From a virus, in the IMG/VR virus record IMGVR_UViG_3300033143_003851, positions 1 to 64,000 of that record: a stretch of 64,000 nucleotides of DNA. One strand, written 5' to 3'. Positions 32,242 to 48,150 of the stretch are shown piece after piece (position 1 is the stretch's first letter; each line of letters starts with the position of its first letter). Made by a program: the position numbers and the translations under genes. The notes beneath the pieces were generated by a model. The model made no database searches. It was not told the origin of the DNA and was given only the letters and a program-made list of their open reading frames with translations.

Positions 32242-32250
32242 ATATAAATG

Positions 32251-32529: not shown

Positions 32530-32530
32530 A

Positions 32531-32613
32531 TGCACAGGGCAGGATTCGAACCTGCGAAGGCACTAAGCCACCAGATCTTAAGTCTGGCCTCTTTTCCGCT
32601 AGAGTACCTGTGC
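32531..32613 (-). tRNA. tRNA-Leu(TAA)
   Basis: GCACAGG/CCTGTGC acceptor; CCAGA-CTTAAGA-TCTGG; long variable arm; A73. Confidence 0.93.
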
Positions 32614-33077
32614 TAATCTAATCCTTTAAACTACTAAATCCTCGTCTGTTTCTCCTAGCAGCAACCCCACAAGTTTCATCCTATTTGCCTGACTTAGTGG
32701 AGCAACTATAGTGGAAAGCTCATCTGACATACAGAAAAACGCCTCGTCATTGTAGTTAACTATCTTAAATTTCATTCTTATCCCCCATATTTCCCATTTT
32801 AATATACTCCTCACAACCACACTCAGCACACACTAGCACTACAAAATCTGGTTCATCTGTGTCTGTGCTATAAGTTATTTTTACATTCCATGTATCTGAG
32901 TTACACCTGCAAAACCTCTGCGACATCTAAAACCCACTCCACATATATATAGAACGAACACTAGTATTTCTGAACTTTGCAGCATTTCTGATAGCATCAT
33001 TCTCTCTCTCAAAGGCACACAGAGTTGCACCATCAACACATACTATCCATATTGGTTTCCGTAACATTCCATCTCCA

Positions 33078-33150
33078 AGCCTGCCGAAGGACTCGAACCC
33101 CCAACCTGTGGTTTACAGGACCACCGCACTACCAATTGTGCTAGACAGGC
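33078..33150 (-). tRNA. tRNA-Thr(TGT) with C33
   Basis: GCCTGTC/GGCAGGC acceptor; GTGGT-CCTGTAA-ACCAC; U73 discriminator. Confidence 0.85.
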
Positions 33151-33327
33151 AAATAAGAAGGTGTAATATATATATGATTAAAATGTGATCGGCATTTAAA
33201 CATAATACTACTATATGAGTAAGCAGCAAGTGAACCACTATATTTTTTACATTATACTGTAATAATATATCTCGTGATATGCCAACTGCCACAATATCCT
33301 TCTATCAGAGTACTTCATATTCTATTA

Positions 33328-34116
33328 TTACATTTCCAATAGTTTTTTCTGTGATGCATCACAATCATTACAAACATCGAACTCATTTTTAGTCTTCTCA
33401 ATTAGTCCTGTATCCCAACAAGATGGACAACTCACATATCCTGTACTATAATCTTTATCACAGCTTTTATGGAAGCACCTATCACAAATATCTCCAAGCT
33501 GATCCACTGTGTCTTCATCACAATAGGCACAAAGATATCTATCCTTTTCTGGGACGGTTTCTGACTGCTCAACTAATACAATGTTAGTTGGACAATCTGA
33601 ACATATTGCCATACTATGAGCATCGCTTTTCACATGCTTATAGCACACGGATCTACAGCAAGAACTACAAACAAATGAAATTTCCCCTTCGCAGCCTTCA
33701 ATTTGACACAAAAATCCTGTATCAATATCATCTCTAAGTCTTTGTGAGTTAGCCAAAACAAATTTAGATGCGCTGTCTACAGACGTAAGGTCATCTAATG
33801 CATTAGTAATTTTTTTATGACCATGAATTGTTTTTATAATTATAGATGGAGTATAGTGAGGCAACTCATGTGCTACCTGATGAAACAACACCCTCAATGC
33901 TGTAAAGTAGTTACAGCATTTTATATGAGTCTCCATCTCACGAATAACTCCAAGGGCAGTATATACAATACCAGCCTCTTCTTTTTCTCGATGATGTGTA
34001 TCACACAGAAAGAACACATTGTCAGCAGTAGCCCACTTATGGGTTCCTAGATCATCACAACCATCATTACCACAAGGCTCTACAGCAACCACAGGTGGCG
34101 ATTCTGTCTCAGACAT
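33328..34116 (-). CDS. Multi-Zn-finger protein (AN1/B-box-like knuckles)
   Basis: CGNDGC..LCDTH; CQIEGC..CSSC..CYKH..CSDC; CAYC..CDRC; CPSC..CNDC; start probably MSETES. Confidence 0.65.
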   Translation of the reverse strand: MSETESPPVVAVEPCGNDGCDDLGTHKWATADNVFFLCDTHHREKEEAGIVYTALGVIREMETHIKCCNYFTALRVLFHQVAHELPHYTPSIIIKTIHGHKKITNALDDLTSVDSASKFVLANSQRLRDDIDTGFLCQIEGCEGEISFVCSSCCRSVCYKHVKSDAHSMAICSDCPTNIVLVEQSETVPEKDRYLCAYCDEDTVDQLGDICDRCFHKSCDKDYSTGYVSCPSCWDTGLIEKTKNEFDVCNDCDASQKKLLEM

Positions 34117-35035
34117 CAGAATCTCCACCGTTTGACACATGCCAGTCCATAATAATTCTGCTATAGAGATCAAGCTTTGTCTCCATGAGACCTGGGGCAC
34201 TATTCGTTTCGAGGACAACAAACTCACCATCTTCTTTTCTGATAACATCAATTGCTGCAATCTTTAGTCCAATTGCTTCTGAAGCTCTGTTACATAGAGT
34301 TTCAAGCTCTGACCACGCAGTAAACCTGTCTGGATCTCTGCGACTATGACGATAGCCATTGTCAAATGCTCTAATTTTGCTCACAACATCATAGAAAATT
34401 TCAAAGTAAAGAGTAGTATGTTCAGCAATATACTCATTATAGTACTCCATATCGTGGATTTTTTGATCCAGATATACCATACTCCCATTCACCATATGAG
34501 CTCTATACTCTGTGTCGCTGGGAACCCATTTCATAAGAATAGTTTTATTATCCCTGTCAGATCTTGGTAACATATTATTACTAGTAATCTTATTTGCTCT
34601 GGCAATTCTGGTGCCAGATCCTCCATGATGAGAGTTTGGTCTCATAATAATAATATCATTACCCTGCTCTCTTAACCAGTCAGTGGGCACAACTCTACTG
34701 GTAATAAACTCTGGAACCGCAATATCAGCATCTCTCAGCTTAGCTAGCATAACATCCTTTCTTCGGCTGTTGTCAATACTGCTGATGGTATTAAGCTCAT
34801 TAGATGGGTTAACATATCCTACTAAAGGGTGTCTGGACCCCCACCTTACAAGATTAAATTCGTTTTCACGGGTCCATACTTTAAGGCGACGACTTACAGA
34901 GTCAGTATATGATCTGCTATTGTGGTTAAGGCCATAGATATGATCTCCAACACCCATGTCAGATATTTTTAAACTTAGTCGTCTACCTGTCCCCGCCATG
35001 CTTTTACCAAACAAAACGATGAGTTTTTTGCCCAT
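34109..35035 (-). CDS. ATP-grasp ligase (RimK-like, phage type)
   Basis: VRWGS, RPNSHHGGSG, TEYRAH, AAIDVI, VLETNSAPGL. Confidence 0.9.
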   Translation of the reverse strand: MGKKLIVLFGKSMAGTGRRLSLKISDMGVGDHIYGLNHNSRSYTDSVSRRLKVWTRENEFNLVRWGSRHPLVGYVNPSNELNTISSIDNSRRKDVMLAKLRDADIAVPEFITSRVVPTDWLREQGNDIIIMRPNSHHGGSGTRIARANKITSNNMLPRSDRDNKTILMKWVPSDTEYRAHMVNGSMVYLDQKIHDMEYYNEYIAEHTTLYFEIFYDVVSKIRAFDNGYRHSRRDPDRFTAWSELETLCNRASEAIGLKIAAIDVIRKEDGEFVVLETNSAPGLMETKLDLYSRIIMDWHVSNGGDSDV

Positions 35036-36072
35036 TACTTTTCCTCCATTTCTTTTAGTGGTTCTGTAATTGTCATCCTACACTTATAACACGCTTTAAT
35101 ACTACTAATTTTATTATCTACCTTGCACCTTTGACATTTGGCAATCATCTCTCCAAATGACTTTCTATATGTTTGAGACCACATCTCGTAGCCTACAATT
35201 GCATCTATGTTTTTAACGCTATGTATTTTTCGTTTAAGAGATTTACCAGTACATACCCCAGTAGTAATCTTCGGGGTTATAGTCGTCGACTTCGTCGCCT
35301 TCGACACAGGTGGGGTTTCCGCCCCGCTGCGAGGGAAATCACTACTATACCCCCCACTGTATACAGAGGCAGGCTTTGTAAGCTTGTCCCCAAATACAAC
35401 TGTAGGACCAATTTCACAGTCTAGCAGGGCCATTGTCTTACTTGGAAAATTCCATACTTCTCCAAGATTCTGCATCATAGTTGGGATTCTAGATGCATAT
35501 ATCCAACCACCGTTTTCTAGTTTCAATCCTTGAAAGTCTCCATATGAAACATATACATATGTGCTTTGGTGTTCGTCATCATCTTCTACTTCTTGCCACA
35601 AATATACTCCAGTTCCGTATATAGGGGCATAGATTCCCAACTCTGCAGTCAAAATTGCCATAATCATAGAGTCAGATGAGAAGTGTAAATCTGCCAAATC
35701 ATAGTCATACCCAATGGCCAGACTGAGAATATGTTGGTCATATCCTCTCCAGGTGCCATTATGAGCAAAAACTACTTCTCTAGTTTCGCAACTCTGAGCA
35801 GATATATGAAATGGGTGGCAAAGAATATCTTCTTTACCGCCTATAGATGCGATTCTAGTGTGAAAGATAAAATCCTCATCTCCAAAATGTTTTGATGAAT
35901 CAAAGCATTCTTTGACAGTCATTTTTAAAGCCTTGTCGACATAGGCTTCTGTCCCCAGAAATCCACCAATTCCATTACCGTGCCCTCCACCTGTCTTTTC
36001 AAGAGCTTTAAACAGGTTAATCATATCATCTTCGGCTGTAAATTTATGAGATACTAAAGCTAGCCTGCACAT
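35035..36072 (-). CDS. Class II (Ntn) glutamine amidotransferase-like protein
   Basis: N-terminal MCRL nucleophile, GHGNG, FHTRIAS.G, HPF, AHNG, SDS. Confidence 0.9.
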   Translation of the reverse strand: MCRLALVSHKFTAEDDMINLFKALEKTGGGHGNGIGGFLGTEAYVDKALKMTVKECFDSSKHFGDEDFIFHTRIASIGGKEDILCHPFHISAQSCETREVVFAHNGTWRGYDQHILSLAIGYDYDLADLHFSSDSMIMAILTAELGIYAPIYGTGVYLWQEVEDDDEHQSTYVYVSYGDFQGLKLENGGWIYASRIPTMMQNLGEVWNFPSKTMALLDCEIGPTVVFGDKLTKPASVYSGGYSSDFPRSGAETPPVSKATKSTTITPKITTGVCTGKSLKRKIHSVKNIDAIVGYEMWSQTYRKSFGEMIAKCQRCKVDNKISSIKACYKCRMTITEPLKEMEEK

Positions 36073-36073
36073 A

Positions 36074-37201
36074 CTACCACTCTCCTTGAGTATTGCTCTC
36101 TTTTACTTGCATTTTACTAATGTTTGGTAAATTATCTTTAATTATCTTAATTAGTTGTTTATAAGAAGGAGCATTAATGGTTGTAATAAATTCCTCTTCA
36201 GGGCGATGAGGGTGGTTAGGACTGAAGTCATTATGTTTAGTATCATATGATACATGATTATCAGCATCTGTTTTATTGATATTAATCTTTTCAGTAACAA
36301 CCAACCTTCTGCTAGCCTTAATTAGCTTCTCAATGGCAGATTTTTTAAAACCACCACTTACTGTAACTTTAGCAGGGCCTCTCTCTAGGTCCCAGTTCTT
36401 AAGGATTGATAGCTTATAGAATGTTTTTTTGTTTTCAATCATATCAAAGATAGGGTTAATCCAAGACTCATATCTACTCCAAAGATGACAAGTCTGAAAT
36501 ACCTCTTTAGCTGTATTTACCGTAGGCATGAGGACATCAGTATCAATTGTTCTGAATGCCTCTTTAATTTCATCACCAGAACTACTGATTGCTAATATTC
36601 TACGCAACACAGATTTTTCTCTGAGATATTGGTCAGTAGCTACCCACATCATAGCTAGGGCAGCCTTTGTCATAGTTGGGTGAGTTAACCAGCTACTAAG
36701 TGCCCTATACTCTACATGTCCATCTCCCTTAAACATACGGCTAGTAGAGACCCCTGCTAGATGTCCATAACTACTACTGTTTCTCCTTCTTATGCCCATC
36801 ATCCTATTCTCTACTAGAACGAGCGGAATGCCTATCATGTTATCCATATATCTACATATGTTTTCTCTTTCACCAAGCATGTTATCATTAATATCTCCAC
36901 TGATATGAATATGACCACCAATAACATCTGACCCAATTGCTCCTCCTCCTCCAACAAGCATCCAACCTGGGGGGATGAATCTTCCTATGTCTCGAAGACA
37001 ACCTCGGATCTGTTCCATATGTTCCTCTGGGGTTCCTGTGCCAGGTCTAATTTCAAACACCCGACCACAGTGATCCTGTCCAATTCGTCTAGAGCTTCCT
37101 ATGAAGTTGTGTGCCACAGACAACACAGTATTCACATTACAGTATCTAAGATCATCCTCTTTTACTAACAGTAACTCTGGGTCGCTTCCTATAAGCAGCA
37201 T
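36074..37201 (-). CDS. COOH-NH2 ligase type 2 (phiEco32-like amidoligase, glutamine synthetase/GCS fold)
   Basis: IGSDPELLL, G.D...FEIRP, GGHIH, RR...YG, VEYRALSSW. Confidence 0.88.
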   Translation of the reverse strand: MLLIGSDPELLLVKEDDLRYCNVNTVLSVAHNFIGSSRRIGQDHCGRVFEIRPGTGTPEEHMEQIRGCLRDIGRFIPPGWMLVGGGGAIGSDVIGGHIHISGDINDNMLGERENICRYMDNMIGIPLVLVENRMMGIRRRNSSSYGHLAGVSTSRMFKGDGHVEYRALSSWLTHPTMTKAALAMMWVATDQYLREKSVLRRILAISSSGDEIKEAFRTIDTDVLMPTVNTAKEVFQTCHLWSRYESWINPIFDMIENKKTFYKLSILKNWDLERGPAKVTVSGGFKKSAIEKLIKASRRLVVTEKININKTDADNHVSYDTKHNDFSPNHPHRPEEEFITTINAPSYKQLIKIIKDNLPNISKMQVKESNTQGEW

Positions 37202-37645
37202 TTACTTTTCCTCCTTTAACATATCTTTAACATGATTTATATCTAGTATAAGTTTTTTTAAGTTCCATTTACACACAGTACTATCGTCTAAAATTACCTT
37301 TATTTTTGATGATATTCTATGAATTTTTCCATATATCGTATTTATACCTCTAATACGATTAGAATTAATACTACAGTAATTAGTTTTACTAGATACGTAA
37401 GCTGTTTTAATATGAGAAAAAATGACTCTGTTGGCAGAAGAAAAATGAGTTTCAACCCAACTAAATAATTCTATACTAAGTCTATGAGCTATTGTCTTAA
37501 TATTGGTATTAAATTGCATATCTATCATAGATATAAAACCATATGTGTCCCATAGGCTTTTTAAAAACAGATCTGCCTCAATTATTTCTTCAATCTCTTG
37601 GGTGGTGATGTGCATATAGTTTTTCCCACCTACATATCTCTGCAT
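37202..37645 (-). CDS. Hypothetical protein (AT-rich)
   Basis: Packed ORF. Confidence 0.5.
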   Translation of the reverse strand: MQRYVGGKNYMHITTQEIEEIIEADLFLKSLWDTYGFISMIDMQFNTNIKTIAHRLSIELFSWVETHFSSANRVIFSHIKTAYVSSKTNYCSINSNRIRGINTIYGKIHRISSKIKVILDDSTVCKWNLKKLILDINHVKDMLKEEK

Positions 37646-38033
37646 ATGTTAAGGAAGCATAATAAGTAATTTTAACATAAACCATAAAGGGTATATCTGA
37701 CTTATAAGTTTCAAATATTGACTGAAGCTCTGATATTGTTGCATACATATCCTCAAAAAAAGAAAATACTACTGCATTTTCAAAATTAGATATATGTTCT
37801 TTTGTATGTGGAAATCGAAGTGATCCACTAGCGTCTAACTTAGACCTATTCAGTTTAGATCTTGTGTCAACAAGATGGTTTCTAAAAATCATACCGATAA
37901 AAGATAGTCTTGAATCGACATTACCAGATCCATTAAACGCACAATCTAAGCAATGAATAATATTTGAGTTCTTTTTACGAAATACTCTATATTTAATATA
38001 TGTGTCTATATCCATATACCCACCTGGATTCAA
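37590..38033 (-). CDS. Hypothetical protein (AT-rich)
   Basis: Packed ORF. Confidence 0.5.
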   Translation of the reverse strand: MNPGGYMDIDTYIKYRVFRKKNSNIIHCLDCAFNGSGNVDSRLSFIGMIFRNHLVDTRSKLNRSKLDASGSLRFPHTKEHISNFENAVVFSFFEDMYATISELQSIFETYKSDIPFMVYVKITYYASLTYAEICRWEKLYAHHHPRD

Positions 38034-38238
38034 CTCTGACGTATTTAATTTGAAGACACTTACGATACCTTAAGAATGCTCGAATTACCTCGCACTTAGA
38101 TGGGACATTTCTTCTCCTGCCTCCCCACCTCTTTTTGTTATTTCTGAGCCTGTCGAGGATTGCCAGGATTGGTATGTGGTTTTCGTCTGCTTTTGGTATG
38201 TGTGGAGACACCTGCCTCCACACATCTTGGTTGCTCAT
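37993..38238 (-). CDS. Small basic hypothetical protein
   Basis: Overlap coupling. Confidence 0.4.
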   Translation of the reverse strand: MSNQDVWRQVSPHIPKADENHIPILAILDRLRNNKKRWGGRRRNVPSKCEVIRAFLRYRKCLQIKYVRVESRWVYGYRHIY

Positions 38239-38578
38239 GTGTTTTCCCCCAGTGTTTAATTTGAACAGTGTTAGGAAAATATTTCCTATGTTTTACAGCT
38301 ATAGTTTGAGACTTCAAACATTCTTCGCTGTGGCTCCCGTTTTCATTGATCCTGACAAGACCAATGTTCTGCCTCCAGAGCCAGTAGTATGCTCCAGGGT
38401 AAAGAAACCATACTGGTTCTTTACCTTTGTCTTGGTATGTGATTGGGGCAATATACTTGCCAGACCTAGTTGAGATCAACTCCTGCCCCTTAGATCCAGT
38501 ATATTTGATTGTCATTGTAGTACCTATGAACATTCTATAAAATTCATAATAGCAATAAGAAGCGCTCCAACCATCCAC
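38138..38578 (-). CDS. Hypothetical protein; start probably MTIKY
   Basis: Packed ORF. Confidence 0.4.
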   Translation of the reverse strand: MDGWSASYCYYEFYRMFIGTTMTIKYTGSKGQELISTRSGKYIAPITYQDKGKEPVWFLYPGAYYWLWRQNIGLVRINENGSHSEECLKSQTIAVKHRKYFPNTVQIKHWGKTHEQPRCVEAGVSTHTKSRRKPHTNPGNPRQAQK

Positions 38579-38742
38579 ACTCGAAGTAAAAACCAGTATA
38601 AACTTAACAGCTCAAAGAACGGATCAAAATCCATATAGATAAAACTAAACAAAAGAATAAAACCAAATACCATAACATAAAAAACAGACATCATTATTAC
38701 ACCAACCACCAATGAAGCAGCGATGCTAGTCAGTTGCTTCAT
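38524..38742 (-). CDS. Small membrane protein (2 TM)
   Basis: Two hydrophobic segments; ATGA coupling. Confidence 0.6.
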   Translation of the reverse strand: MKQLTSIAASLVVGVIMMSVFYVMVFGFILLFSFIYMDFDPFFELLSLYWFLLRVWMVGALLIAIMNFIECS

Positions 38743-39518
38743 TGTTGTTCCCCAGCCTTCTTAAATGCTCCAAGGATGGTGGACATCATGTCCATCATCC
38801 TTTTAATTTCCTTCATGTTCCTCTCCTGCCCAGTAACCATGAATTTAAGTTCCCTCAGAGTCTCGGTCAATCCCCCCGATAAGTTACTGAGGTGGTGTCG
38901 AACCTCTGACATCATCTCAGTAGACTTATCCATCTGGTCAATGACATCTGCCCACCTCTCATTAAATGTAGGCTTATCCATTGAGACATGTTCATATCCT
39001 GGTACTGGTACTGGCACAGGTTCAGGTTCAGATTTAAGCTCTGGCCAAACTCCTCTAAAATGAACTCCTCTTGGAATCCTTTTCTTATACAGAACAATAT
39101 CACACATTAGATCATCTGTATTTGGAGGGTATGGAAGATGCTCTGGGATTGCGACGACTTTGCCCTCGCAATCATCCAGAACCTGTTTCAAGAAGGTAGC
39201 CCATGTCTGAACGTTAGGGGAATCCCTTGAGTGCTCACAACATGGCACGAAGATAATCTGTCTATCATCTTCGACATTTACGTAAACTGGTTCTGCCATC
39301 TTCATATTTTTGAGTTGGCTCATGGTCTCCTCATCTGCCACTGAAGCTGCCCAACCATTGTAAGCAGACATAAACACATATACATCTGCATCCACCTTAT
39401 CCACCGTTGGGTTGCCTGTAACTGCAGGTTCAATCACAGTTGCAGTTTCCATCGCTCGCTCTTGAACCTTGGCCTCTAGTTGAGCAATCACTTGCTTAAC
39501 GCTGATATTTTCTTGCAT
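38739..39518 (-). CDS. Hypothetical protein with Pro-rich linker and C-terminal coiled coil
   Basis: GAGGTGA RBS; EPEPVPVPVP; heptad repeats. Confidence 0.7.
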   Translation of the reverse strand: MQENISVKQVIAQLEAKVQERAMETATVIEPAVTGNPTVDKVDADVYVFMSAYNGWAASVADEETMSQLKNMKMAEPVYVNVEDDRQIIFVPCCEHSRDSPNVQTWATFLKQVLDDCEGKVVAIPEHLPYPPNTDDLMCDIVLYKKRIPRGVHFRGVWPELKSEPEPVPVPVPGYEHVSMDKPTFNERWADVIDQMDKSTEMMSEVRHHLSNLSGGLTETLRELKFMVTGQERNMKEIKRMMDMMSTILGAFKKAGEQQ

Positions 39519-40225
39519 TATTTCACCTCTAGTTGAACTCTACTGTAATTTTTGCCTCTAATAACACCACTACCATTATCATATAAAACATCATATAAAT
39601 ATCCCATGACTCCACGACTATGTCTAGCACAAATCACTCCTACTTCTCCCTTATATGGCCCTGTAAGACAGGTAACTTTGGTTCCAACCTGTAAACGACC
39701 AGGAGCAGGGTGCTTGGCAGCGTCGTATGATTCAATATATCTTTCAAGAATCCACCCAGTCGTACAATTAACCATATACTCTAGACTTGTTTTTGGATTT
39801 GTTAGCACAGAAATACGAGTAATATATCCAGACAAATTAATATGTTGGACATACACAAGATCTCCCACCTCATACTTATTATTTGAAGTCATCTTCTTAA
39901 TATTCTTTGATACGGTATATAAATTACACTTAGCAATCATAAGTATGTTACTATTCACTTCAATACCTACAAAATTATTAGGGAATAAAATTTTTATTAC
40001 TCCAGATTCTTCTCTACCAGCTTCCCACCAATATACAGTATCTCCGACTTTGAAGTTCTGTGTAAGCGGAGGTGGAGTTTTGTGCCAAAATGGATCAAGA
40101 GTCTTTACATACTCTGGTTTCTTCTCATGGAGATTGTCAGGGATAATCTCCATGCAGGACATACACCAGTTTCCACAACTCTCTTTCCCACAGGTTTTAC
40201 ACTTATATATTTGTAAATCCTTCAT
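39518..40225 (-). CDS. Zn-ribbon plus three KOW/SH3-like repeats
   Basis: CKTC..CMSC; FKVGDTVYW, YEVGDLVYV, LQVGTKVTCLTGPYKGEVGVI; start probably MKDLQ, downstream of the tRNA. Confidence 0.7.
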   Translation of the reverse strand: MKDLQIYKCKTCGKESCGNWCMSCMEIIPDNLHEKKPEYVKTLDPFWHKTPPPLTQNFKVGDTVYWWEAGREESGVIKILFPNNFVGIEVNSNILMIAKCNLYTVSKNIKKMTSNNKYEVGDLVYVQHINLSGYITRISVLTNPKTSLEYMVNCTTGWILERYIESYDAAKHPAPGRLQVGTKVTCLTGPYKGEVGVICARHSRGVMGYLYDVLYDNGSGVIRGKNYSRVQLEVK

Positions 40226-40234
40226 ACTATCACA

Positions 40235-40341
40235 TGGACCTAAGAGGATTCGAACCTCCATTCTTCCTGTCCCTACTCTCCCAGTCTAAGCAACTAAGAT
40301 TTCGAACTAAACAGGATGCTTTTCCATTAAGCTATAGGCCC
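40235..40341 (-). tRNA. tRNA-like gene with a 35-nt insertion in the anticodon loop (identity unresolved: Pro-TGG, Leu-TAG or other)
   Basis: GGGCCTA/TAGGTCC acceptor; GCTT/AAGC D stem; TCCTG/CAGGA stem enclosing 42 nt; GGAGG-TTCGAAT-CCTCT T arm. Confidence 0.75.
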
Positions 40342-40355
40342 CATAATATATCTTA

Positions 40356-40427
40356 TGGGCCTGGTGGGATTTGAACCCACGACCTTCAGTTTATGAGACT
40401 GGTGCTCTACCACTAAGCTACGGGCCC
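40356..40427 (-). tRNA. tRNA-(CAT), probably Ile2
   Basis: GGGCCC acceptor typical of Ile; CTCATAA loop; A73; lacks initiator GGG/CCC anticodon stem. Confidence 0.88.
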
Positions 40428-41039
40428 AGATATTGAATTAAAAGCATCTCTAAGTTGTGCTACATACCTTTCAATAATCACATACTCACATTCATCTAAA
40501 CCCAGGAGGAAACGGGTAGTTTCCTCCCTGGTTGCTAAGCGAATACAGTTATCTGATGAGTCAGGCATGTTATTGCCCTGAAGTCCATTATTTCTTATGG
40601 CCTTTTGATTCTGTAAGAAGATAACTGGATGTGTCCCGTAGTTATGGTCGTTTGGATTTCCAGTGATAACTATAAGGGTGCCAGAGTCAAAAGAATATTG
40701 TCCTCGCCTTACAGTTCGACCAACTGGAACTGGCACTAAATTACTACTACCAACTGTTTGAATAATAAGATTAGCTAACTTAAAAAATATATGCTCTCTT
40801 CTACCAGTCATATTTGTAGCTGTCTGCTCTATCTCAGTTAATACTTTGGTGAGATTATTCCGAACTACAGTGGCCTCATCAACCTCACCCGATGATGATG
40901 ATGCGCTAGTGTCATCATCCCAAGCTCTCTCCATGATACTCAGAATAATCTGTTTTAACTCTATTCTGACATGAAATGTCTGAACAGACATAGCTGCATC
41001 TAGGCGACTTAAAAATTCCCCATAACTTGCTGTTGGCAT
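40413..41039 (-). CDS. Hypothetical protein whose stop codon lies inside tRNA(CAT)
   Basis: 208 aa; ends GGG CCC GTA GCT TAG. Confidence 0.7.
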   Translation of the reverse strand: MPTASYGEFLSRLDAAMSVQTFHVRIELKQIILSIMERAWDDDTSASSSSGEVDEATVVRNNLTKVLTEIEQTATNMTGRREHIFFKLANLIIQTVGSSNLVPVPVGRTVRRGQYSFDSGTLIVITGNPNDHNYGTHPVIFLQNQKAIRNNGLQGNNMPDSSDNCIRLATREETTRFLLGLDECEYVIIERYVAQLRDAFNSISGPVA

Positions 41040-41040
41040 G

Positions 41041-41661
41041 TCATTTCCCTCTATATATTATTTTTTTAACTGTAACTGATCTAAATGTCATGGCACTATA
41101 TTTTTTATACTCATCTTTTTGATGGTTCTCATGCGAACACCAAACCATCCAGGTGCCTCTATACATAGGATCATATCCAACACACTTTACTACAACAACT
41201 TTATAGTTAGTAAAACGCAGTTTGCTACTTATATATTTAGCGTAGTCTTTTGCGTGTCTTTTATTAGTAAAAACATGGATACCAAATATTGATTTAAAAA
41301 ACACACTGTCTTTAGATATAGTATCTATACTATTTTTGTTGGCATATGTTCTTCTATTTTTTGTGTAATAAAACTTTCTAATGCAAGATACGAAGATATC
41401 GTCAAGCGTGTCCCACATAAGGACAACTTTATATACTGGGCGACTGTATTTCTTGACAGGGTGAAAATTCTCTAAACACATATGATATCTCCAATATATA
41501 GATATATAAGAACTAAAGAAACAGTTTGTTATCTGCACTAACTCCACGACGAAAGTCTTCAAGGGACATCGCAGGTTGTCCAGTAGCCTGCTGACAGATA
41601 TCATCGAGAGCAGCGTGAATCTTGGGAATTGTCTTGTCGTAGATATTTTTGTCAGACCCAA
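41041..41661 (-). CDS. Hypothetical protein; start probably MCLENF near 41482
   Basis: VYKVV...S...GIHVF phage-type motif; GGAG RBS. Confidence 0.55.
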   Translation of the reverse strand: MGLTKISTTRQFPRFTLLSMISVSRLLDNLRCPLKTFVVELVQITNCFFSSYISIYWRYHMCLENFHPVKKYSRPVYKVVLMWDTLDDIFVSCIRKFYYTKNRRTYANKNSIDTISKDSVFFKSIFGIHVFTNKRHAKDYAKYISSKLRFTNYKVVVVKCVGYDPMYRGTWMVWCSHENHQKDEYKKYSAMTFRSVTVKKIIYRGK

Positions 41662-42580
41662 TCAGATCATTGAACTCTTCAACCACCTCTGGGTAGTTTG
41701 TTCCCATGTATTTTTTGACAGCTCCCCAAAGACCACTGTCATTGCTCTCAGCATCAGCCACAATCTCTTCTTGGATTTCCTCGATACTAAGAGTATCTAC
41801 AACATCAGCAACAGGGTCCACAACTTCCGCTTCTTCTTCAGTAGTTTCTTCACTGTCCTCATGGGAACCGAGCTGTTCTAGCTGCTCCATGAGCTGAGCC
41901 ACAGTGAGGTTTCCATGCCCCTGCTTGTTGAACTCATGCAAGGTAGCATAGAGGATATTGATATCGTTGTTCTCCTCATCTGTGTTGATTTCTGGTTCAG
42001 TGCTCCTGTCAGCAACAGTAACAACAGCTGTCTGAGCAACAGGTTCAATGTGCTCAAGAGTCTTTGAGGCTGCTTTGTAAAACACAGCAACCCCATCTCG
42101 AGGCAGATGAAGGAAATGTCCGTCTCCTTCAGTAACCGCAACATGAGCTGCAGCCTTGATACCTGCCCAGCCACCCTTACATGCATAGATGGACCCATCC
42201 CGCTTTCTGACCCAACAGGATTTATATACGCTACCAGCAGGCTCATGCCCAATAGCGTTGTCCTCTGGGCCAGTCCAGCGACCTCCATCTTTAGTTTCAG
42301 TAGTGGCCAGCCACCTTTCTCCATCAAACTGGAAAGACCTATCGTATAGGTCTTTCGCATCAATGAGAGCACTTTTCTGGTACTCCCCCGTCTTTACCAG
42401 ATCATACTCTGGCCACTGTTTCTGAACAGAGCGCTTAGACCAACGATCCTCACGGGTCTCTTGCGGAGTTGATGACCTCGGTTGTAAAGTCGAACGAATC
42501 GACTTGACAACTTCGGGAGTTCGAACCAAGGGAGCACTGCCAAAAAGGGCGGAGATCTGGGGAACCTTCTTATCTGTCAT
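41513..42580 (-). CDS. Early protein, paralog of 47205-48098
   Basis: Own promoter, GGTGA RBS; FLHLPRDG and WGAVKKY...KNIY shared with the paralog; acidic linker. Confidence 0.75.
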   Translation of the reverse strand: MTDKKVPQISALFGSAPLVRTPEVVKSIRSTLQPRSSTPQETREDRWSKRSVQKQWPEYDLVKTGEYQKSALIDAKDLYDRSFQFDGERWLATTETKDGGRWTGPEDNAIGHEPAGSVYKSCWVRKRDGSIYACKGGWAGIKAAAHVAVTEGDGHFLHLPRDGVAVFYKAASKTLEHIEPVAQTAVVTVADRSTEPEINTDEENNDINILYATLHEFNKQGHGNLTVAQLMEQLEQLGSHEDSEETTEEEAEVVDPVADVVDTLSIEEIQEEIVADAESNDSGLWGAVKKYMGTNYPEVVEEFNDLIGSDKNIYDKTIPKIHAALDDICQQATGQPAMSLEDFRRGVSADNKLFL

Positions 42581-42630
42581 TGTATCACCATTTGGGTTTC
42601 CAACGATTGGACATTGATTTGTTCGTTGTT

Positions 42631-42659
42631 GTATAAATAATTTTCGGGTCATTGCATCA
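42631..42659 (-). promoter_or_regulatory. Archaeal promoter (BRE CCGAAA + TATA) with upstream TGATGCAA
   Basis: TGATGCAA-TGAC-CCGAAA-ATTATTTATAC. Confidence 0.7.
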
Positions 42660-42678
42660 CCATCGGTCATAATTTATA

Positions 42679-43203
42679 TTACCACTCACAGACAGTAATA
42701 GAACCATCAGTATGAATTATAATATTCATCACATCTTTACCAAACTGGTATGCCTGTTTAGCTGTCCAGCACCCACCAGACTTGACATGATCTAGTACTG
42801 GGACTTTTTTAATATGATGATAGCATGTATCGAAAACCATACCCTGATAGTTATCTGGATACTCATCTACTACGATACATATTAGTGTGTCGCTGTGTTT
42901 AGCGATGTCTATATTTCTTGCCCTATATCCATATCCTTGCGGGTTCCACTGGTGGACTTTAGGGTTAAAAATTAAGTCTGGATTATATATCTTATCATCT
43001 TCATCCAGATAGTCATCAAGTTTTAGGGCTTCTTCTTCTGCCCAAACATCTATACCACCAACTGGACTACGACCAGATGAGAGTTTGGCACTATAGAGAT
43101 AATGTGCTGTTAAAAGAATATTACGGATGTGCTTTTTAGCAGTTGTCTCTGTGATACTATTGAACTTATCTGCTCCATGCCCAACTATGCCTATAACTGT
43201 CAT
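42679..43203 (-). CDS. SLOG (DprA/YspA-like) domain protein
   Basis: IGIVGH, SSG...GIDVWAE, YRARNIDIAKHSD, SGGCWTAKQA. Confidence 0.8.
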   Translation of the reverse strand: MTVIGIVGHGADKFNSITETTAKKHIRNILLTAHYLYSAKLSSGRSPVGGIDVWAEEEALKLDDYLDEDDKIYNPDLIFNPKVHQWNPQGYGYRARNIDIAKHSDTLICIVVDEYPDNYQGMVFDTCYHHIKKVPVLDHVKSGGCWTAKQAYQFGKDVMNIIIHTDGSITVCEW

Positions 43204-43624
43204 ACTTTCGCCCTCGCAAACTCATTGATAAGTGATCGAAGAAAAAGAAGAAGATATATTTCAAATTTTTCAACAGCTTTATCATCATAGTCGTGTAATC
43301 CTACTGATGCTTTGCACCACTCTATCCACAATGGGTGTTTTCTTTCGTCTAATATCATTTCAATCCCGCCCTCTTAAGACACACATCACAGCCTATGTTT
43401 GTAGGTCCAATCTCTGTTACTGTGCCACAGTTTGCACAAGTTCTAAGTTTAGACTGTCTTTGGTAGTTGTGCAGTCTTGCTATATAACTACCTATACTCC
43501 ATCCTACATCAGATATAGTGGTTGCTGTCATTATATTACCCTCACAATCTGTCTAACATGTCCGCTAGTGGTAGCGCAACAAATAAAACAATGATAATAA
43601 GTATTACAAAAAACAATTCATCTG

Positions 43625-44014
43625 TCATCTTTTTTGACTCCTTACTTGAAACATGTGTCGGCAACTCTCCATTTTATCAACCATTTTCTGTCTAAGAGTT
43701 TCAAACTCTTCTTTATTATTATTCTCCCAACAGACTGATATCTTATACATAAGAGAATTTTTATAATCACGATGAATATTAGTTGGTAAACAAAACTCTT
43801 CGTAAAGAGGACACTGTATACAGATACCTCTATCCATCCAATTAAACTCATAACAAAACCCACACGCATTCCATATAACAGATGCCCATGCACCGGCTCT
43901 ACCAAGCGGTAAATATGATCGCTTAATTAAACGGTCCCATAAGGTATGGTCCCATTTTTTCATACTACTGATAAAATTACTTATCAACACAACTCCCTCC
44001 CACAGTTGGGACAT
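43625..44014 (-). CDS. Cys-rich hypothetical protein
   Basis: CGFC...CIQCPLY...C. Confidence 0.55.
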   Translation of the reverse strand: MSQLWEGVVLISNFISSMKKWDHTLWDRLIKRSYLPLGRAGAWASVIWNACGFCYEFNWMDRGICIQCPLYEEFCLPTNIHRDYKNSLMYKISVCWENNNKEEFETLRQKMVDKMESCRHMFQVRSQKR

Positions 44015-44229
44015 CTATAGATACTCTTAACATGTAGTTCCTCTTTGGTTACAATCTCCCACTCTGGATCGGGCGAAACTAGACCCATAAAGTTATATAT
44101 CTCTGTAACTCTAAGAAGATGCCACTGAGCATGTCCTTCATAAGAGATATACTTATATTTGTGCCTAAATTTCTCTCTGATAGTAATATCTACAGCATCC
44201 TCACAATACAGACAACTCACTGGTGCCAC
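43984..44229 (-). CDS. Zn-finger protein
   Basis: CLYC...IYRCPNCGREL. Confidence 0.6.
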   Translation of the reverse strand: MAPVSCLYCEDAVDITIREKFRHKYKYISYEGHAQWHLLRVTEIYNFMGLVSPDPEWEIVTKEELHVKSIYRCPNCGRELC

Positions 44230-44618
44230 CTTCTGCCACAGGACCAGCAGTCTTCTGGATCATCAGACCCAGCACCACAATCAGGGCAATATTTCGGTAT
44301 CTCCACGACACTACCTAGCTGCGGTATTACCAATACCTTGATAGTCTCATCTTTGACACTACCGCTGTCAGATAGTCGAGATTCACAGCACCAGACACAG
44401 TTACAGTTGACAAAGGGACCATATTTCTCATGGTCTACAACTTTTTGATCTTGGTTGTCAGGGTCAACAATCTTACCAACTACTGCAAAGTCTGTGAGAC
44501 GCCCCTGCTCATCATAGAACAAGACCCACATTGAGTTGGTTTCCTCAATGTATATGAAGTGTCCATCTTTCATAAGTATTCCCCCAGAGGGTCCACATAT
44601 TTTGCAATCTTTACCCAA
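44217..44618 (-). CDS. Zn-finger protein
   Basis: CVWC, YCPDCG, CWSCG. Confidence 0.6.
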   Translation of the reverse strand: MGKDCKICGPSGGILMKDGHFIYIEETNSMWVLFYDEQGRLTDFAVVGKIVDPDNQDQKVVDHEKYGPFVNCNCVWCCESRLSDSGSVKDETIKVLVIPQLGSVVEIPKYCPDCGAGSDDPEDCWSCGRRWHQ

Positions 44619-44773
44619 TACTGTCTCTGTTTAACAGTTATGTCATTTCTGCCCAGAAAAGATATGATATCTTGCACGAAGTCATGCTCAGATATAAATA
44701 ATTCAGACTCAGCATGGTCAGCGTGGATAGACATCAGATATTCCTCCTGGTGGTGGTGGAACAGATGCTGCAT
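44570..44773 (-). CDS. Hypothetical protein
   Basis: GGAGG RBS at the internal MSIH. Confidence 0.4.
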   Translation of the reverse strand: MQHLFHHHQEEYLMSIHADHAESELFISEHDFVQDIISFLGRNDITVKQRQYWVKIAKYVDPLGEYL

Positions 44774-45207
44774 TCATACTTACCCACCCCTTTCTCTTGG
44801 ATGTTCACGAGCTTGTGGATGTTTGGCACCCCACAATCTCTGCACATAAGATTTTTGTTCTCGGTTGAGAAAGGCGAGTGAGGACAGTAGTCTCTGTGGT
44901 CATTAGGGTTGTGCAACCCGAAAGGTTCACCACAGTTCATGCAGACCCAGTGTCTGGATTTGGTCTGAGTTAGGGTACTCACTGCACAGTTGGGACATGT
45001 TTTCATGTCGCAACTACATACTCTGGATCTCTGAAATGCAGCAAGGCTCTGCTGCATTAAATCCAGTTGGTGGTCTGTGAATTTGGCACTAGACAAGATA
45101 ATCATCCTCCATGTACTGCCTCTCGATATCAAGATACCTCTGGATCTCATCTGCACACAGAGGATGGATCTGAAGGGCATCCATGTCTGAAAACATGGCT
45201 TTACCAC
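44734..45207 (-). CDS. Multi-Zn-ribbon protein; start probably MIILSS
   Basis: CPNC, CMNC, CRDC, CSIC. Confidence 0.55.
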   Translation of the reverse strand: MVKPCFQTWMPFRSILCVQMRSRGILISRGSTWRMIILSSAKFTDHQLDLMQQSLAAFQRSRVCSCDMKTCPNCAVSTLTQTKSRHWVCMNCGEPFGLHNPNDHRDYCPHSPFSTENKNLMCRDCGVPNIHKLVNIQEKGVGKYECSICSTTTRRNI

Positions 45208-45416
45208 ACCACGAACAGAGTCTGGTCATCAAACTACCTCCTGTCGAGACTTCACATCTCGATACCAGATCACCCTGCGACGGTAATGCTCTGTATAGCT
45301 CAGTCCAGTCTTCTTCAGGACAATACGATCCCTGAGGCCGTGGGCAGCTCGACTGCCACCCTGCCCAACACTTCTCAGGTCTGCCAACCGCTTCTCCAGG
45401 AAGTTCAGTTTGAGTT

Positions 45417-45755
45417 TCACGGGTAGGCCTCCTGCTGATATATATCAGCCTCGACATCCTGAAGCAGGTCCAGGTAGAACTGAAACTTGAGCTGAACATA
45501 AAGATCATGCTTGATCTTCATGTAGGTCGCTGAATCCCAGCGGTGCCTGTCGCACCAAGTATATGCGACAGTACGGCCCCCCTTCCAACGAGGGTCATCT
45601 GTGGGGCAAGGAGCCCCTACCATCTTCATATTCTTAGGCACCAACCTAAGAATACCGCAGTTTTTACAGCTACGGTTCGGAACCAAGGAAACAGGGTTGG
45701 AGTTGTTGGTGGACCCAACAACTGAGGACGTCATGGTATCGTTGTTTCGACCCAT
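45417..45755 (-). CDS. GC-rich early protein with Cys/His motif
   Basis: Own promoter; CKNC...C...WCDRH. Confidence 0.6.
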   Translation of the reverse strand: MGRNNDTMTSSVVGSTNNSNPVSLVPNRSCKNCGILRLVPKNMKMVGAPCPTDDPRWKGGRTVAYTWCDRHRWDSATYMKIKHDLYVQLKFQFYLDLLQDVEADIYQQEAYP

Positions 45756-45785
45756 TTTTCCACCAACCATACATTGTATTGCCAA

Positions 45786-45814
45786 CTATATAAACATTTC
45801 GGTTTGTTGCATCA
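45786..45814 (-). promoter_or_regulatory. Archaeal promoter (BRE CCGAAA + TTTATATA) with upstream TGATGCAA
   Basis: TGATGCAA-CAAA-CCGAAA-TGTTTATATAG. Confidence 0.75.
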
Positions 45815-45847
45815 TCTCCATTTTACATATTTACATGATACCACTAG

Positions 45848-46062
45848 TTCTATACTATGTATATACACTAGTGTATATACACCTAAAGGTGTATATACAT
45901 TCTATACTATAGTTCTATACTATACATATCTTAATAGATATCTATATCTAATACTAACTCTATGTAAGGCACAGAGTTAGAGTTAGAGACAGAGTTAGAG
46001 ACAGAGATCTGTCTCTAACTAACTGAATGACTGACGAAAAACATGGTCAGACGTGGTCAGAC
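45848..46062. repeat. Palindrome/iteron cluster (candidate origin element 1)
   Basis: 3x TGTATATACA; 24-bp perfect palindrome at 45858-45881; 3x TTCTATACTAT; 13-bp inverted repeat at 45993-46020; 2x TGGTCAGAC. Confidence 0.75.
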
Positions 46063-46150
46063 ATAGTATAAGTGCATTAATTTAGATATTTGTAAGAGAT
46101 ATCTAATAATTGCACGGTTTATACATAGAATAAGAGCACAAAAATATAGG

Positions 46151-46170
46151 GTTAAAAAAACAAAAAAAGA
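46151..46170 (-). terminator. Oligo-T terminator
   Basis: TCTTTTTTTGTTTTTTT immediately after the stop at 46171. Confidence 0.6.
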
Positions 46171-46374
46171 CTAAGAGGTGATGTTTGCCCATATATCTAA
46201 ATCAAACTTAGACATATATACAGTGGTAGTGTCAGGCAGATCAAACACAATAGTATTAATCCACAACCCTCTACCTGCGTCTATAGTGTTGTAACCAAAC
46301 TCTGCATGACCAACTATAGACACAAATATAGATACACTATCTATCACCATTTTGTAGCTAAAGATCCATTTCAT
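46171..46374 (-). CDS. Hypothetical protein
   Basis: ATGA coupling. Confidence 0.5.
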   Translation of the reverse strand: MKWIFSYKMVIDSVSIFVSIVGHAEFGYNTIDAGRGLWINTIVFDLPDTTTVYMSKFDLDIWANITS

Positions 46375-46640
46375 TTTACATCACTATCCAAGTTAAATAA
46401 ATCAATTGGTTCTTCAGGTATCAAATATCCATAAGATAACTCTATCATGCCTGTTCTGTAGCTGGCACAAGCTCGCTCGCACATAGGAAAGCCTTCATAT
46501 TCATCAAGTTTAAGATCTACTACCCAGTAAAAAAGACCACCAGTATCACTATCTCTATCTACAGCACTATAGTTAGCAGCAACCATATCATAGTCATCGT
46601 TGCTCCAAAACTCATCTAGTTCCTCACAGTACTGACACAT
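46371..46640 (-). CDS. Acidic hypothetical protein
   Basis: MCQYC, CERAC; D/E-rich. Confidence 0.55.
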   Translation of the reverse strand: MCQYCEELDEFWSNDDYDMVAANYSAVDRDSDTGGLFYWVVDLKLDEYEGFPMCERACASYRTGMIELSYGYLIPEEPIDLFNLDSDVK

Positions 46641-46642
46641 AC

Positions 46643-46804
46643 TTAGTACTCTCCCAACAGATCGTCCGTCTCTTCAAAGTCAAGGTGGCAGTTGTCCTCT
46701 TGCAACTGACCAATGGACCGAGCGTCAAATACCGCCCAGTCAAACTTCTTCAGGGCCCAGTAGACAACTTGCAAAGTAAGATCAACTTCAATCCAGGTTC
46801 CCAT
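46643..46804 (-). CDS. Small acidic protein (53 aa; not in ORF track)
   Basis: MGTWIEVDL...LLGEY; abuts both neighbours. Confidence 0.5.
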   Translation of the reverse strand: MGTWIEVDLTLQVVYWALKKFDWAVFDARSIGQLQEDNCHLDFEETDDLLGEY

Positions 46805-46969
46805 TTACTTGCCCCCAGAGGCCAGCAATCCCAACTTGCCAAAGTCCAAACTACAGGCAACGGATATTACATCCGTTCTCTGCAGCTCACCAATATCTCC
46901 AACCAGAACGAAGGGTTTGACCTCTGCCCTGGAGACAGAGGTGGTGGTCGAGGGTTTGTCGCTTGACAT
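46805..46969 (-). CDS. Small protein (54 aa; not in ORF track)
   Basis: GGAGG RBS; MSSDKPSTTT. Confidence 0.5.
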   Translation of the reverse strand: MSSDKPSTTTSVSRAEVKPFVLVGDIGELQRTDVISVACSLDFGKLGLLASGGK

Positions 46970-47204
46970 GTTATTCCTCCAGAGTCTCTGTGGGTTCCGA
47001 ACCCATCAATCCTCACAGGACAGAGACATGTAGTGATTTTGTTTTTAGCAGTATCAACACAACTGCTCTGCCCTCGTTCGTCTCAGGTGAGGGGACCATG
47101 TAACAGATCATCATCTGTTATACAAGCAAGAATCAGGTGCCCCAGCCAAGGGGCACTTGCTACTGCATTTTTATACCTCCATATTTTGGGTTTTAGCCTC
47201 GGTC

Positions 47205-48098
47205 TCAGGAGATATAGAGGGCGGAACCAGGGGTTCCATCTTTTCTCACAATGACCTTGCCAGTGTTGTTGGCCTTCCTGAACGAAGTGATTTGGGAGTC
47301 GGTGCCATAGCGAGGCAGGTCGGCCCCAGTCTGAATCAGGACCTTTCCAACTCGCCCGAGAGCCTCATTGTAGAAGTTTTTTGAGGAGTTTGCGAGGGCC
47401 CAGTTCCAGGCATCACACTCATCTGAGTGCGTTGCTCTGAGGTGCTTTTTGATGGCCCCCCATTTGTAGCCTGTCAGGTCGCAGGCTGCGAGGATATCAG
47501 TAACCAGACTGATAGTTCGATTCTGGGTGCCTTTCGGGACCTGAACTGCGGGGACCTCGGGTTTTGGGGGTGGAGGTGGTGCCACCTGGTCGAAGTGGCC
47601 CCAGCGAGTATCTTGGGGGGCACTGATCTGGGCCACAATGGTCTTGTTGGGAACCATCTGAGGTTTGTCCTTGATAGGCACGGGAGTTGAGGTGGTAGCC
47701 TCAACCTCAACCAGGCTGTGAGACCCATCTTTCTTCAGGTGGAGGATGAAACCCCCTTGGGCCACGAACTCAGGGGCATATTGCTCCAGGGCAGCCTGTG
47801 AGTATCGCCAGGCTCGGGTCTTGCCCTTGCTCCAGGCCCAGATGGCCTTGAGGACCTTGCCATCATGGTTGCTGATGCGGGAACCGACAACGGTCCCCTT
47901 GCGGTTCTCGTATGTCTTGATTGCATAGGCCCAGGCGGCCTCTACAACCTCACGCTCGGACAGGTCCTCAGGGACCTCAACATCTGTGAAATACCAGTTT
48001 CCCCCATGAGGGGTGAACTGCAGTCCACAAAACAAAACGGGGTTTGGTCCATCACCGAGGGCAATGGATGAGGGGTCAATGGTGTTGTTTGATACCAT
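47205..48098 (-). CDS. First early gene, GC-rich, paralog of 41513-42580
   Basis: GGAGG RBS; promoter; FILHLKKDG, WGAIKKH...KNFY; Pro-rich linker. Confidence 0.75.
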   Translation of the reverse strand: MVSNNTIDPSSIALGDGPNPVLFCGLQFTPHGGNWYFTDVEVPEDLSEREVVEAAWAYAIKTYENRKGTVVGSRISNHDGKVLKAIWAWSKGKTRAWRYSQAALEQYAPEFVAQGGFILHLKKDGSHSLVEVEATTSTPVPIKDKPQMVPNKTIVAQISAPQDTRWGHFDQVAPPPPPKPEVPAVQVPKGTQNRTISLVTDILAACDLTGYKWGAIKKHLRATHSDECDAWNWALANSSKNFYNEALGRVGKVLIQTGADLPRYGTDSQITSFRKANNTGKVIVRKDGTPGSALYIS

Positions 48099-48130
48099 AT
48101 TTGTTTCCTCCAATGGTGAGTAAGTTGGTG

Positions 48131-48150
48131 GTTGTATATAAATGTTTGGT
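48131..48150 (-). promoter_or_regulatory. Archaeal promoter for the first early gene
   Basis: ACCAAACATTTATATACAAC. Confidence 0.65.

Follow-up and report, generated by a model that had tools for sequence, protein, structure and literature searches.

Archaeal transfer RNA (tRNA) genes reportedly carry introns bounded by bulge–helix–bulge (BHB) motifs, at the canonical position 37/38 as well as at non-canonical positions, as Marck and Grosjean are said to have described in 2003. Transfer RNA shapes also punctuate longer transcripts, as in mitochondrial transcripts and in haloarchaea, where a tRNA-like element ahead of the 5S rRNA is cut by tRNase Z. The tRNAs of Lak megaphages, which have bacterial hosts, contain 'enigmatic' short introns without a self-splicing core, one of the inserts being itself tRNA-like; the inserts are conserved across genomes and their junctions are defined by intron-free copies (Devoto et al. 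2019, PMC6784885). Here we describe a tRNA-shaped gene, X, at positions 40235–40341 (minus strand, 107 nt) of a 64,000-nt window (positions 1 to 64,000 of the IMG/VR virus record IMGVR_UViG_3300033143_003851), in which the anticodon loop is 42 nt long (loop positions L1–L42). The reading that we tentatively favour is that X gives an unspliced, non-decoding and probably alanylatable tRNA-like RNA, which would be excised from an operon transcript by RNase P and RNase Z and kept for its shape.

Among described systems, X is closest in kind to the tRNA-like processing signals and to the Lak inserts. It shares with the Lak introns a virus-encoded tRNA and a short, tRNA-like insert without a self-splicing core, whereas X is a singleton in a probable archaeal virus. 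With tRNA punctuation it has in common tRNA-shaped units between open reading frames (ORFs), the next start codon lying 0–10 nt on, and degenerate cloverleaves beside true tRNAs; the difference is that for this virus the processing is a prediction from the sequence layout, and no description of such processing in archaeal viruses was found in the literature searched. Like intron-bearing archaeal tRNAs, X is a tRNA gene in an archaeal setting with an anticodon loop interrupted by a few tens of nucleotides, and the candidate host group is noted for lenient endonucleases and non-canonical introns; unlike them, it has no hBHBh', HBh' or hBH motif that would give a normal loop, and its stable fold keeps the anticodon stem. 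Because the BHB motif is lacking, X falls outside this class. Host tRNAs used for comparison below come from a candidate host order of 12 archaeal genomes (0.9–1.9 Mb), which contains the four closest matches to the viral tRNA(CAU) gene adjoining X.

An intact cloverleaf around an oversized loop

The Rfam tRNA model (RF00005) matched X with 56 bits (E = 2e-9; gathering score 29), covering all 71 model positions and placing 38 insert positions in the anticodon loop. All 21 of the 21 stem positions are paired, two of them as G.U, with a T stem of GGAGG/CCUCU and a D stem of GCUU/AAGC, and the core nucleotides U8, A14, G18G19, A21, U54U55C56, A58 and the Levitt pair A15:U48 are present. X is a real gene for a tRNA-shaped RNA. 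Its features, with two adjoining genes, are as follows (all on the minus strand).

40235–40341: whole gene X, with no encoded CCA (Rfam RF00005; ARAGORN -i)
40335–40341: acceptor 5' strand GGGCCUA, G3 at 40339; first five bases as in the viral and host-order tRNA-Ala (sequence)
40318–40332: D arm GCUU-AAUGGAA-AAGC, with A14, A15, G18G19 and A21 (Rfam alignment, fold)
40312–40316: anticodon stem 5' strand UCCUG (alignment, fold; pair probabilities 0.66–1.0)
40270–40311: 42-nt anticodon loop, L1–L42 (fold)
40301–40307: T-loop-like heptamer GUUCGAA within the insert (local alignments to tRNA 3' parts)
40275–40293: D-arm-like segment UUGCUUAGACUGGGAGAGU within the insert; aligns to D arms of the viral tRNA(CAU) and host-order tRNAs in permuted-junction order
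40279–40299: inner hairpin of 8 bp including three G.U pairs, loop GCUUA (fold; pair probabilities at least 0.97)
40274–40308: 35 nt whose excision would leave UUUGGGA (junction 34/35, anticodon UGG); a hypothetical intron without BHB (hand enumeration)
40265–40269: anticodon stem 3' strand CAGGA (alignment, fold)
40243–40264: variable loop AGAAU and T arm GGAGG-UUCGAAU-CCUCU (Rfam alignment)
40235–40242: acceptor 3' strand UAGGUCC plus A73, U70 at 40238 and A73 at 40235 (sequence)
40356–40427: tRNA(CAU), archaeal tRNA-Ile2-like, 14 nt upstream of X (Rfam, 72 bits)
39518–40225: ORF of 235 amino acids, no known family, its ATG 9 nt past A73 of X (ORF read, protein searches)

A preliminary description, made from the letters of the window, had drawn perfect arms, a 42-nt anticodon loop with an inner hairpin, and an acceptor with G3–U70 and A73, and all of these were borne out. 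Its proposed check with ARAGORN gave a split answer: X was missed at default settings and was called with -i, with a shifted anticodon stem, a 33-nt intron and the label Leu(UAG). We dropped this label and a Thr(AGU) label, as they depend on the shifted 5-bp stem and the 33-nt intron and X has a class-I body without the long variable arm. Two further Rfam matches were likewise discarded: YrlA (RF02553), which scored 30.1 bits against a gathering score of 69 and spanned two adjacent tRNAs, and a sub-threshold Plastid-ycf2 match explained by the adjacent tRNA.

In the minimum free energy (MFE) fold, L1–L3 (UUU) pair with L40–L42 (GGA) as U1–A42, U2.G41 and U3.G40 (probabilities 0.82–0.99), so that the anticodon stem and the loop form a rod of 8 bp, an internal loop and the 8-bp hairpin UCUUAGUU/GACUGGGA. 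The insertion had been called structured; a hairpin can indeed be drawn, but its stability is not beyond chance, the insert alone having z = −0.26 against dinucleotide shuffles, with 364 of 1000 shuffles as stable or more. The whole anticodon arm reached z = −2.5, mostly due to the anticodon stem. The inner hairpin was therefore dropped as a selected structure. Other ideas about the rod were also set aside: UUAG/UAG repeats as an anticodon-loop decoy (17% of shuffles have some 4-mer at least three times), and K-turn, H/ACA-like and box C/D readings, whose motifs were missing on hand check.

The insert has no second copy in the viral genome and is not a repeated or mobile element. Read 5' to 3', it holds the T-loop heptamer, then UUAG, which resembles the acceptor 3' strand of X, and then the D-arm-like segment with the hallmarks U8, G10, A14, G15, G18G19, A21 and a pairable stem. 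We aligned the insert to tRNAs in permuted order (3' part, then 5' part), with shuffled inserts as the null. The score observed against the viral tRNA(CAU) was reached by 1 of 2000 shuffles, that against the viral tRNA-Ala by 5 of 2000, that against the halves of X itself by 39 of 2000, and the mean over 31 host-order tRNAs by 1 of 300; for these 31 tRNAs, the permuted minus normal-order score was +1.8 for the insert and −0.55 ± 0.85 for shuffles. The likeness to tRNA is real but modest, because the viral tRNA-Gln, aligned in normal order, matches just as well (2 of 2000 shuffles). A T loop followed by a D arm is the order of a head-to-tail tRNA junction; the insert therefore probably arose when a head-to-tail pair of tRNA copies collapsed or when tRNA genes recombined. 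Natural tandem duplications of part of a tRNA gene are seen in the metagenomic contigs L085/L104, L102, L112 and L122, in which a tRNA 5' fragment (acceptor and D arm) is fused ahead of a complete tRNA.

The search for a splicing signal

As encoded, X lacks a 7-nt anticodon loop with U33 and a purine at 37, and would gain one only by a hypothetical excision. Removal of 35 nt from the loop gives the anticodon AGG, UGG or UAG, depending on the junction, and never the NGC of alanine; UGG with G37 results only if exactly L4–L38 are excised. The loop contains a single UGC, at the foot of the inner hairpin loop and with U where position 37 would fall. In the BHB geometry applied here, helix H comprises positions 32–35 for an intron at 37/38 and each 3-nt bulge is cut behind its second nucleotide, a rule that was verified against a review (PMC4090602) and against control genes. 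The BHB scanner found the motif at 37/38, with correct 7-nt loops, in ~20 intron-bearing metagenomic tRNA-Ala genes, and it also recovered the non-canonical D-arm intron of a host-order tRNA-Pro(CGG); MFE folds of the host-order introns and remaining controls show a helix plus a 3-nt bulge.

At the seven possible junctions of X, neither the hand check nor the scanner gave a strict or relaxed BHB that leaves a 7-nt loop. BHB-type folds of X lie at +6.4 to +10.6 kcal/mol, compared with −16.3 kcal/mol for the MFE fold; the UGG junction (34/35) takes the highest of these values, +10.6 kcal/mol, and it and two relaxed candidates each need a melted anticodon stem. A single BHB-like element occurs in a stable fold (a 4-bp helix G5–C8/G34–U37 with 4-nt and 2-nt bulges), and its cleavage would leave a 13-nt loop. 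A self-splicing (group I) core takes ~200 nt or more, whereas the insert has 35 nt and no Rfam intron match, and the viral proteins that were scanned included no recognised splicing endonuclease, RtcB or RNA ligase. Because no BHB is available, the insert is probably not removed by the host splicing endonuclease, and the missing motif weighs against splicing of X. Both the preliminary claim that no canonical BHB can be drawn and its list of anticodons (TGG, TAG or AGG, none of them alanine) held, the former in hand check, scanner and fold energies alike. It had offered three options, namely a non-canonical intron, a missense allo-tRNA, or an unspliced alanylated decoy or tmRNA-like RNA; an unspliced, non-decoding RNA is the one that we favour, and the intron and missense options are weakened, though still alive given the relaxed splice motifs of the candidate host order.

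Host-order tRNA-Pro genes carry 18–20-nt non-canonical introns in or just past the D arm. Three of the five genes were mislabelled by ARAGORN, and the gene of genome G003 has a strict BHB.

tRNA-Pro(UGG) with such introns: L161, L164 and L168 (genomes G010, G011 and G001)
tRNA-Pro(CGG) with such introns: L162 and L166 (genomes G003 and G012)

If spliced, X would be a working intron-containing tRNA, in which the 35 nt between U34 and G35 would be removed by a lenient (alpha-beta)2 endonuclease or by another route, and which would read CCA/CCG. It could be charged by ProRS through G35/G36, A73 and G1:C72, and also or instead by AlaRS through G3:U70, which would make it a Pro-to-Ala missense tRNA. 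We consider this unlikely, although several features speak for it. The flanks UUU...GGGA would join into a canonical proline loop with U33, G37 and A38, the cloverleaf and tertiary nucleotides are intact, and each splice site alone can be drawn by hand beside a helix with 3 of its 4 positions paired. Of the viral proline codons, 43% are CCA, and the NNA codons read by the other five viral tRNAs account for 31–54% of the codons of their amino acids. Thermoproteota-type (alpha-beta)2 endonucleases accept relaxed motifs at non-canonical sites (PMC4090602), and the host-order genomes contain non-canonical introns. The two half-motifs, however, share the 5' strand 29–32 with different partners and so need a melted anticodon stem, at +6 to +11 kcal/mol against the MFE of −16; neither a strict nor a relaxed BHB leaving 7 nt was found, nor a viral splicing or ligation enzyme among the proteins scanned; the body of X is unlike host-order tRNA-Pro; and a proline decoder with a full alanine acceptor signature would mistranslate.

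A variant of excision, in which a relaxed BHB with its central helix paired at 3 of 4 positions would remove 34 nt so that the loop has the 8 nt UUUAGGGA, like that of a frameshift-suppressor tRNA, appears highly improbable. The only relaxed BHB-like candidates near the anticodon arm do yield UUUAGGGA, but their folds come out at +6.4 and +6.8 kcal/mol, spurious candidates that are just as good are numerous in other parts of X, and programmed quadruplet sites are not known for this virus.

The alanine-type acceptor and the lineage of the body

The acceptor of X (GGGCC../..GGUCCA) is identical in its top five pairs and discriminator A73 to that of the viral tRNA-Ala and of the three tRNA-Ala genes of the host-order genome G004, and among the 44 tRNAs detected in G004, G3:U70 (..GGUCC) occurs only in these three. 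The G3:U70 pair and A73 are, by this comparison, part of a full tRNA-Ala acceptor signature and not an incidental wobble; X differs from tRNA-Ala in having no NGC anticodon in a 7-nt loop. For the body, the two halves of X, with the loop left out, were scored against the viral and G004 tRNAs as follows.

Viral tRNA-Ala: 70
Host tRNA-Arg(UCG): 69
Viral tRNA(CAU): 66
Host tRNA-Ala, three genes: 65, 62 and 62
Best-scoring host tRNA-Pro: 48

The 3' half of X is closest to tRNA-Ala. Host-order tRNA-Pro(UGG) has G3:C70 and D, anticodon and T arms unlike those of X, which shows neither the G3:C70 pair nor the host-group likeness of a tRNA-Pro body. On these similarities, X is best placed in the alanine-tRNA family, with a thin margin in overall similarity.

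Searched by BLAST against the tRNAs of the 12 host-order genomes, X gave nothing beyond chance, whereas the adjoining tRNA(CAU) gave many matches, and no X-like gene was found in these genomes. The stems of X have A–U pairs where host-order tRNA-Ala has G–C. Being beyond the reach of BLAST, X is old and diverged, and yet all its stems pair, with A–U for G–C, which we take to fit long selection on the fold. The same evidence bears on a rather unlikely but serious contender, that X is a neutral relic: a viral tRNA-Ala-family gene recently broken in its anticodon loop by illegitimate recombination or duplication, which would be transcribed and trimmed to no purpose and will decay. An insert that resembles tRNA-derived debris, with structure at chance level and no BHB, agrees with such a history, as do the uniqueness of X in its genome, the failure to find relatives with X, and the partial internal duplications of L085, L102, L112 and L122. 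A relic of this kind should accumulate mismatches, whereas X keeps all 21 stem positions paired and has lost none of the core tertiary nucleotides despite its divergence, with compensated A–U pairs relative to tRNA-Ala, and a second aberrant cloverleaf (described below) is retained in the same genome.

AlaRS reads G3:U70 and ignores the anticodon. Once CCA has been added, X should be an AlaRS substrate, and in the reading that we prefer, CCA addition would be followed by alanylation through G3:U70. It is very unlikely, in our estimate, that alanine identity is itself the function of X, as an alanylated non-decoding RNA that would serve as a donor (for example to the COOH-NH2 ligase/ATP-grasp cassette), in tmRNA-like rescue, or in drawing off AlaRS or tRNA-targeting nucleases as a decoy or sink. 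The complete alanine acceptor signature, an AlaRS that needs no anticodon, and a ligase/GATase/ATP-grasp cassette 3 kb from X are compatible with such a role, and alanine-acceptor tRNA-like genes without a normal anticodon loop occur in the viral contigs L077/L116 and L078/L113. Against it, nothing links X to the ligase cassette, the UUAG repeats that might hint at an anticodon-loop decoy are not significant, and the second aberrant cloverleaf has A3–U70 and no alanine identity. Nor is X a tmRNA, as there is no ARAGORN call, no Rfam tmRNA match and no tag ORF at X. X resembles the tRNA-like domain of tmRNA and other alanine-accepting tRNA-like RNAs in that its acceptor/T-arm module carries G3:U70 and a long helix stands where the anticodon arm would be; it differs from tmRNA in its full D arm and in the absence of an mRNA-like part and a tag ORF. 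Archaea are not known to have a tmRNA/SmpB system. Taken more broadly, a deliberately maintained alanine-identity tRNA, which would either be spliced without a BHB and insert alanine at CCA/CCG proline codons or remain an unspliced, alanylated, anticodon-free RNA with a role of its own, is in our judgement decidedly unlikely.

A pattern of alanine-type acceptors with oversized middles was also searched. It matched two IMG/VR sequences (L077, 1103–1196, minus strand; L078, 8322–8427, plus strand) with a GGGCC../..GGUCCA acceptor and 50–60 nt replacing the anticodon arm, and these recur in L116 and L113, respectively; the encoded CCA of L078 suggests a bacterial host. In metagenomes, L093, L095, L099, L124/L128 and L129 hold tRNA-like genes with an alanine acceptor in which no anticodon loop can be recognised; in L095, L124 and L128, CCA is encoded right behind the gene. 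If the unspliced, alanylated reading is true, X would belong to a broader, as yet undescribed class of non-decoding tRNA-like RNAs that accept alanine and turn up repeatedly in bacterial and archaeal viruses.

Processing, genome context and host

The acceptor/T-arm helix and the D/T elbow are the features recognised by RNase P, tRNase Z and the CCA-adding enzyme. Because both are intact in X, it should be excised like the neighbouring tRNA. The favoured history and fate of X would run as follows: in a gene of the tRNA-Ala lineage, the anticodon loop was replaced by 42 nt through tRNA–tRNA duplication or recombination; the host endonuclease would leave the insert in place, so that X would not decode; and RNase P and tRNase Z would cut X out of a polycistronic transcript. 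tRNA(CAU) and X are probably co-transcribed, and excision of X would separate tRNA(CAU) from the downstream ORF, which, judging from the layout, would be left with a 9-nt leader. Start codons likewise lie 0–10 nt past the tRNA-Gln, tRNA-Leu and tRNA-Ala genes of the virus.

Furthermore, the genome holds a second degenerate cloverleaf. Two tRNA-like units at 49347–49500 (plus strand) stand right before tRNA-Ala(UGC) and past a TATA-like box near 49330; the first of them (unit 1, 49347–49417, plus strand) folds into a cloverleaf with D and T arms and an acceptor of 7 bp, but where an anticodon arm would stand it has a stem of 4 bp and a loop of 10 nt. It is not called by Rfam and has A3–U70 without alanine identity. 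Unit 1 points to an anticodon-independent use of the tRNA shape, and its lack of alanine identity suggests that shape, and not charging, is the property that it has in common with X.

Several points weigh against the reading of X as an unspliced RNA that is retained for its shape. Roughly half of the genuine intron-bearing tRNA-Ala controls fail the strict BHB scan, so relaxed motifs exist, and the candidate host order uses non-canonical tRNA introns. Joined together, the flanks of the insert would read UU-UGG-GA (G37, A38), a textbook proline loop, and CCA is the commonest viral proline codon (43%), paralleling the codons of the other five viral tRNAs, which fits a working decoder. The tRNA(CAU) gene 14 nt upstream already gives a processing site, for which X is not needed. 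No homologues of X were found from which covariation in the insert or the body could be read, and the body score for tRNA-Ala is barely above that for host tRNA-Arg(UCG) (70 compared with 69). The host call itself is built from tRNA similarity and promoter geometry, with neither a spacer match nor a provirus.

If X is unspliced and functional, archaeal viruses would employ degenerate tRNA shapes either to punctuate RNA processing or as RNAs that can be charged; such use is well known in mitochondria and barely described for archaeal viruses. If it is spliced, an archaeal tRNA intron would be removed without a BHB signal, giving a decoder with conflicting proline and alanine identity. X is one copy in one genome, a real and odd object read from DNA only, and a single 107-nt transcript would make a cheap in vitro test case whichever reading holds.

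The record comprises the complete genome of a tailed virus, 73,903 bp long and with direct terminal repeats. Its recognised genes, besides a large terminase identified by protein-atlas features alone, are the following.

PolB and ribonucleotide reductase
A thymidylate kinase-like P-loop protein and a metallophosphoesterase
ThyX, dCMP deaminase, UDG, a Cas4-like nuclease and two DNA methylases
A phiEco32-type ligase (COOH-NH2 ligase) and an adjacent ATP-grasp protein, in the cassette 3 kb from X

It has five ordinary tRNAs (Gln UUG, Leu UAA, Thr UGU, CAU and Ala UGC). Protein searches returned no homologues of the ORFs flanking X, both of which are singletons in the cluster look-up. In viral contigs, exact and gapped DNA patterns found no relative of X, and queries with the neighbouring ORFs, PolB, a PolB homologue and the portal found no relative of the virus; a ribonucleotide reductase search of species genomes also gave none.

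The viral tRNAs and promoters, taken together with PolB, indicate the host. Of the 26 species genomes hit by a pattern drawn from the viral tRNA(CAU), 25 are archaeal and nearly all belong to the Thermoproteota sensu lato (Nitrososphaeria, 'Thermoprotei', Methanomethylicia, Geothermarchaeota and Nezhaarchaeales). A B recognition element (BRE)/TATA box, AAACA-TTTATATA, lies 22–34 nt ahead of the leaderless start of the gene at 47205–48113, and TATA-like boxes stand ahead of tRNA-Thr and two other units, 17–28 nt before the mature 5' end of tRNA-Thr and ~37–48 nt before the start of the ORF at 57203; archaeal-type BRE/TATA boxes, AAACATTTATATA and variants, are placed at 48114–48146, 33151–33178, 57155–57166 and ~48900, either 22–34 nt ahead of leaderless starts or close before tRNA-Thr. 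In the protein atlas, the cluster nearest to PolB is 54% archaeal, with Nitrososphaerota most often, and the PolB alignment was too divergent for use as a scan query. An archaeal host is probable and well supported by this sequence evidence and, because of tRNA(CAU), the BRE/TATA promoters and PolB, the host is most likely a Thermoproteota (TACK) archaeon. A bacterial host, suggested by the phiEco32-type ligase and by Shine–Dalgarno motifs (internal viral genes have GGAGG or GGTGA ribosome-binding sites), was dropped on the archaeal promoters and the tRNA(CAU) matches. The specific host order is a lead only: the viral tRNA(CAU) is 83–85% identical to the tRNA(CAU) of 10 of its 12 genomes, the loci fetched from it have 28–33% G+C, and none of the 12 genomes has a spacer-like match to window positions 30001–50000.

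Some minor features of the viral tRNAs and of the genome were also recorded. Four of the six viral tRNAs (18139–18209, 33078–33150, 40235–40341 and 49501–49573) have A15, which therefore allows no archaeosine, compared with G15 in most G004 tRNAs (by eye); the viral tRNA-Gln has a G1.U72 top pair, and tRNA(CAU) (40356–40427) has a C6xA67 mismatch. At 48114–49070, a divergent intergenic region of ~950 bp between two transcription arms contains many short repeats (ACTAGTG-type words and GTATATAC palindromes) and a G-rich stretch, and it may be a replication origin or a regulatory region.

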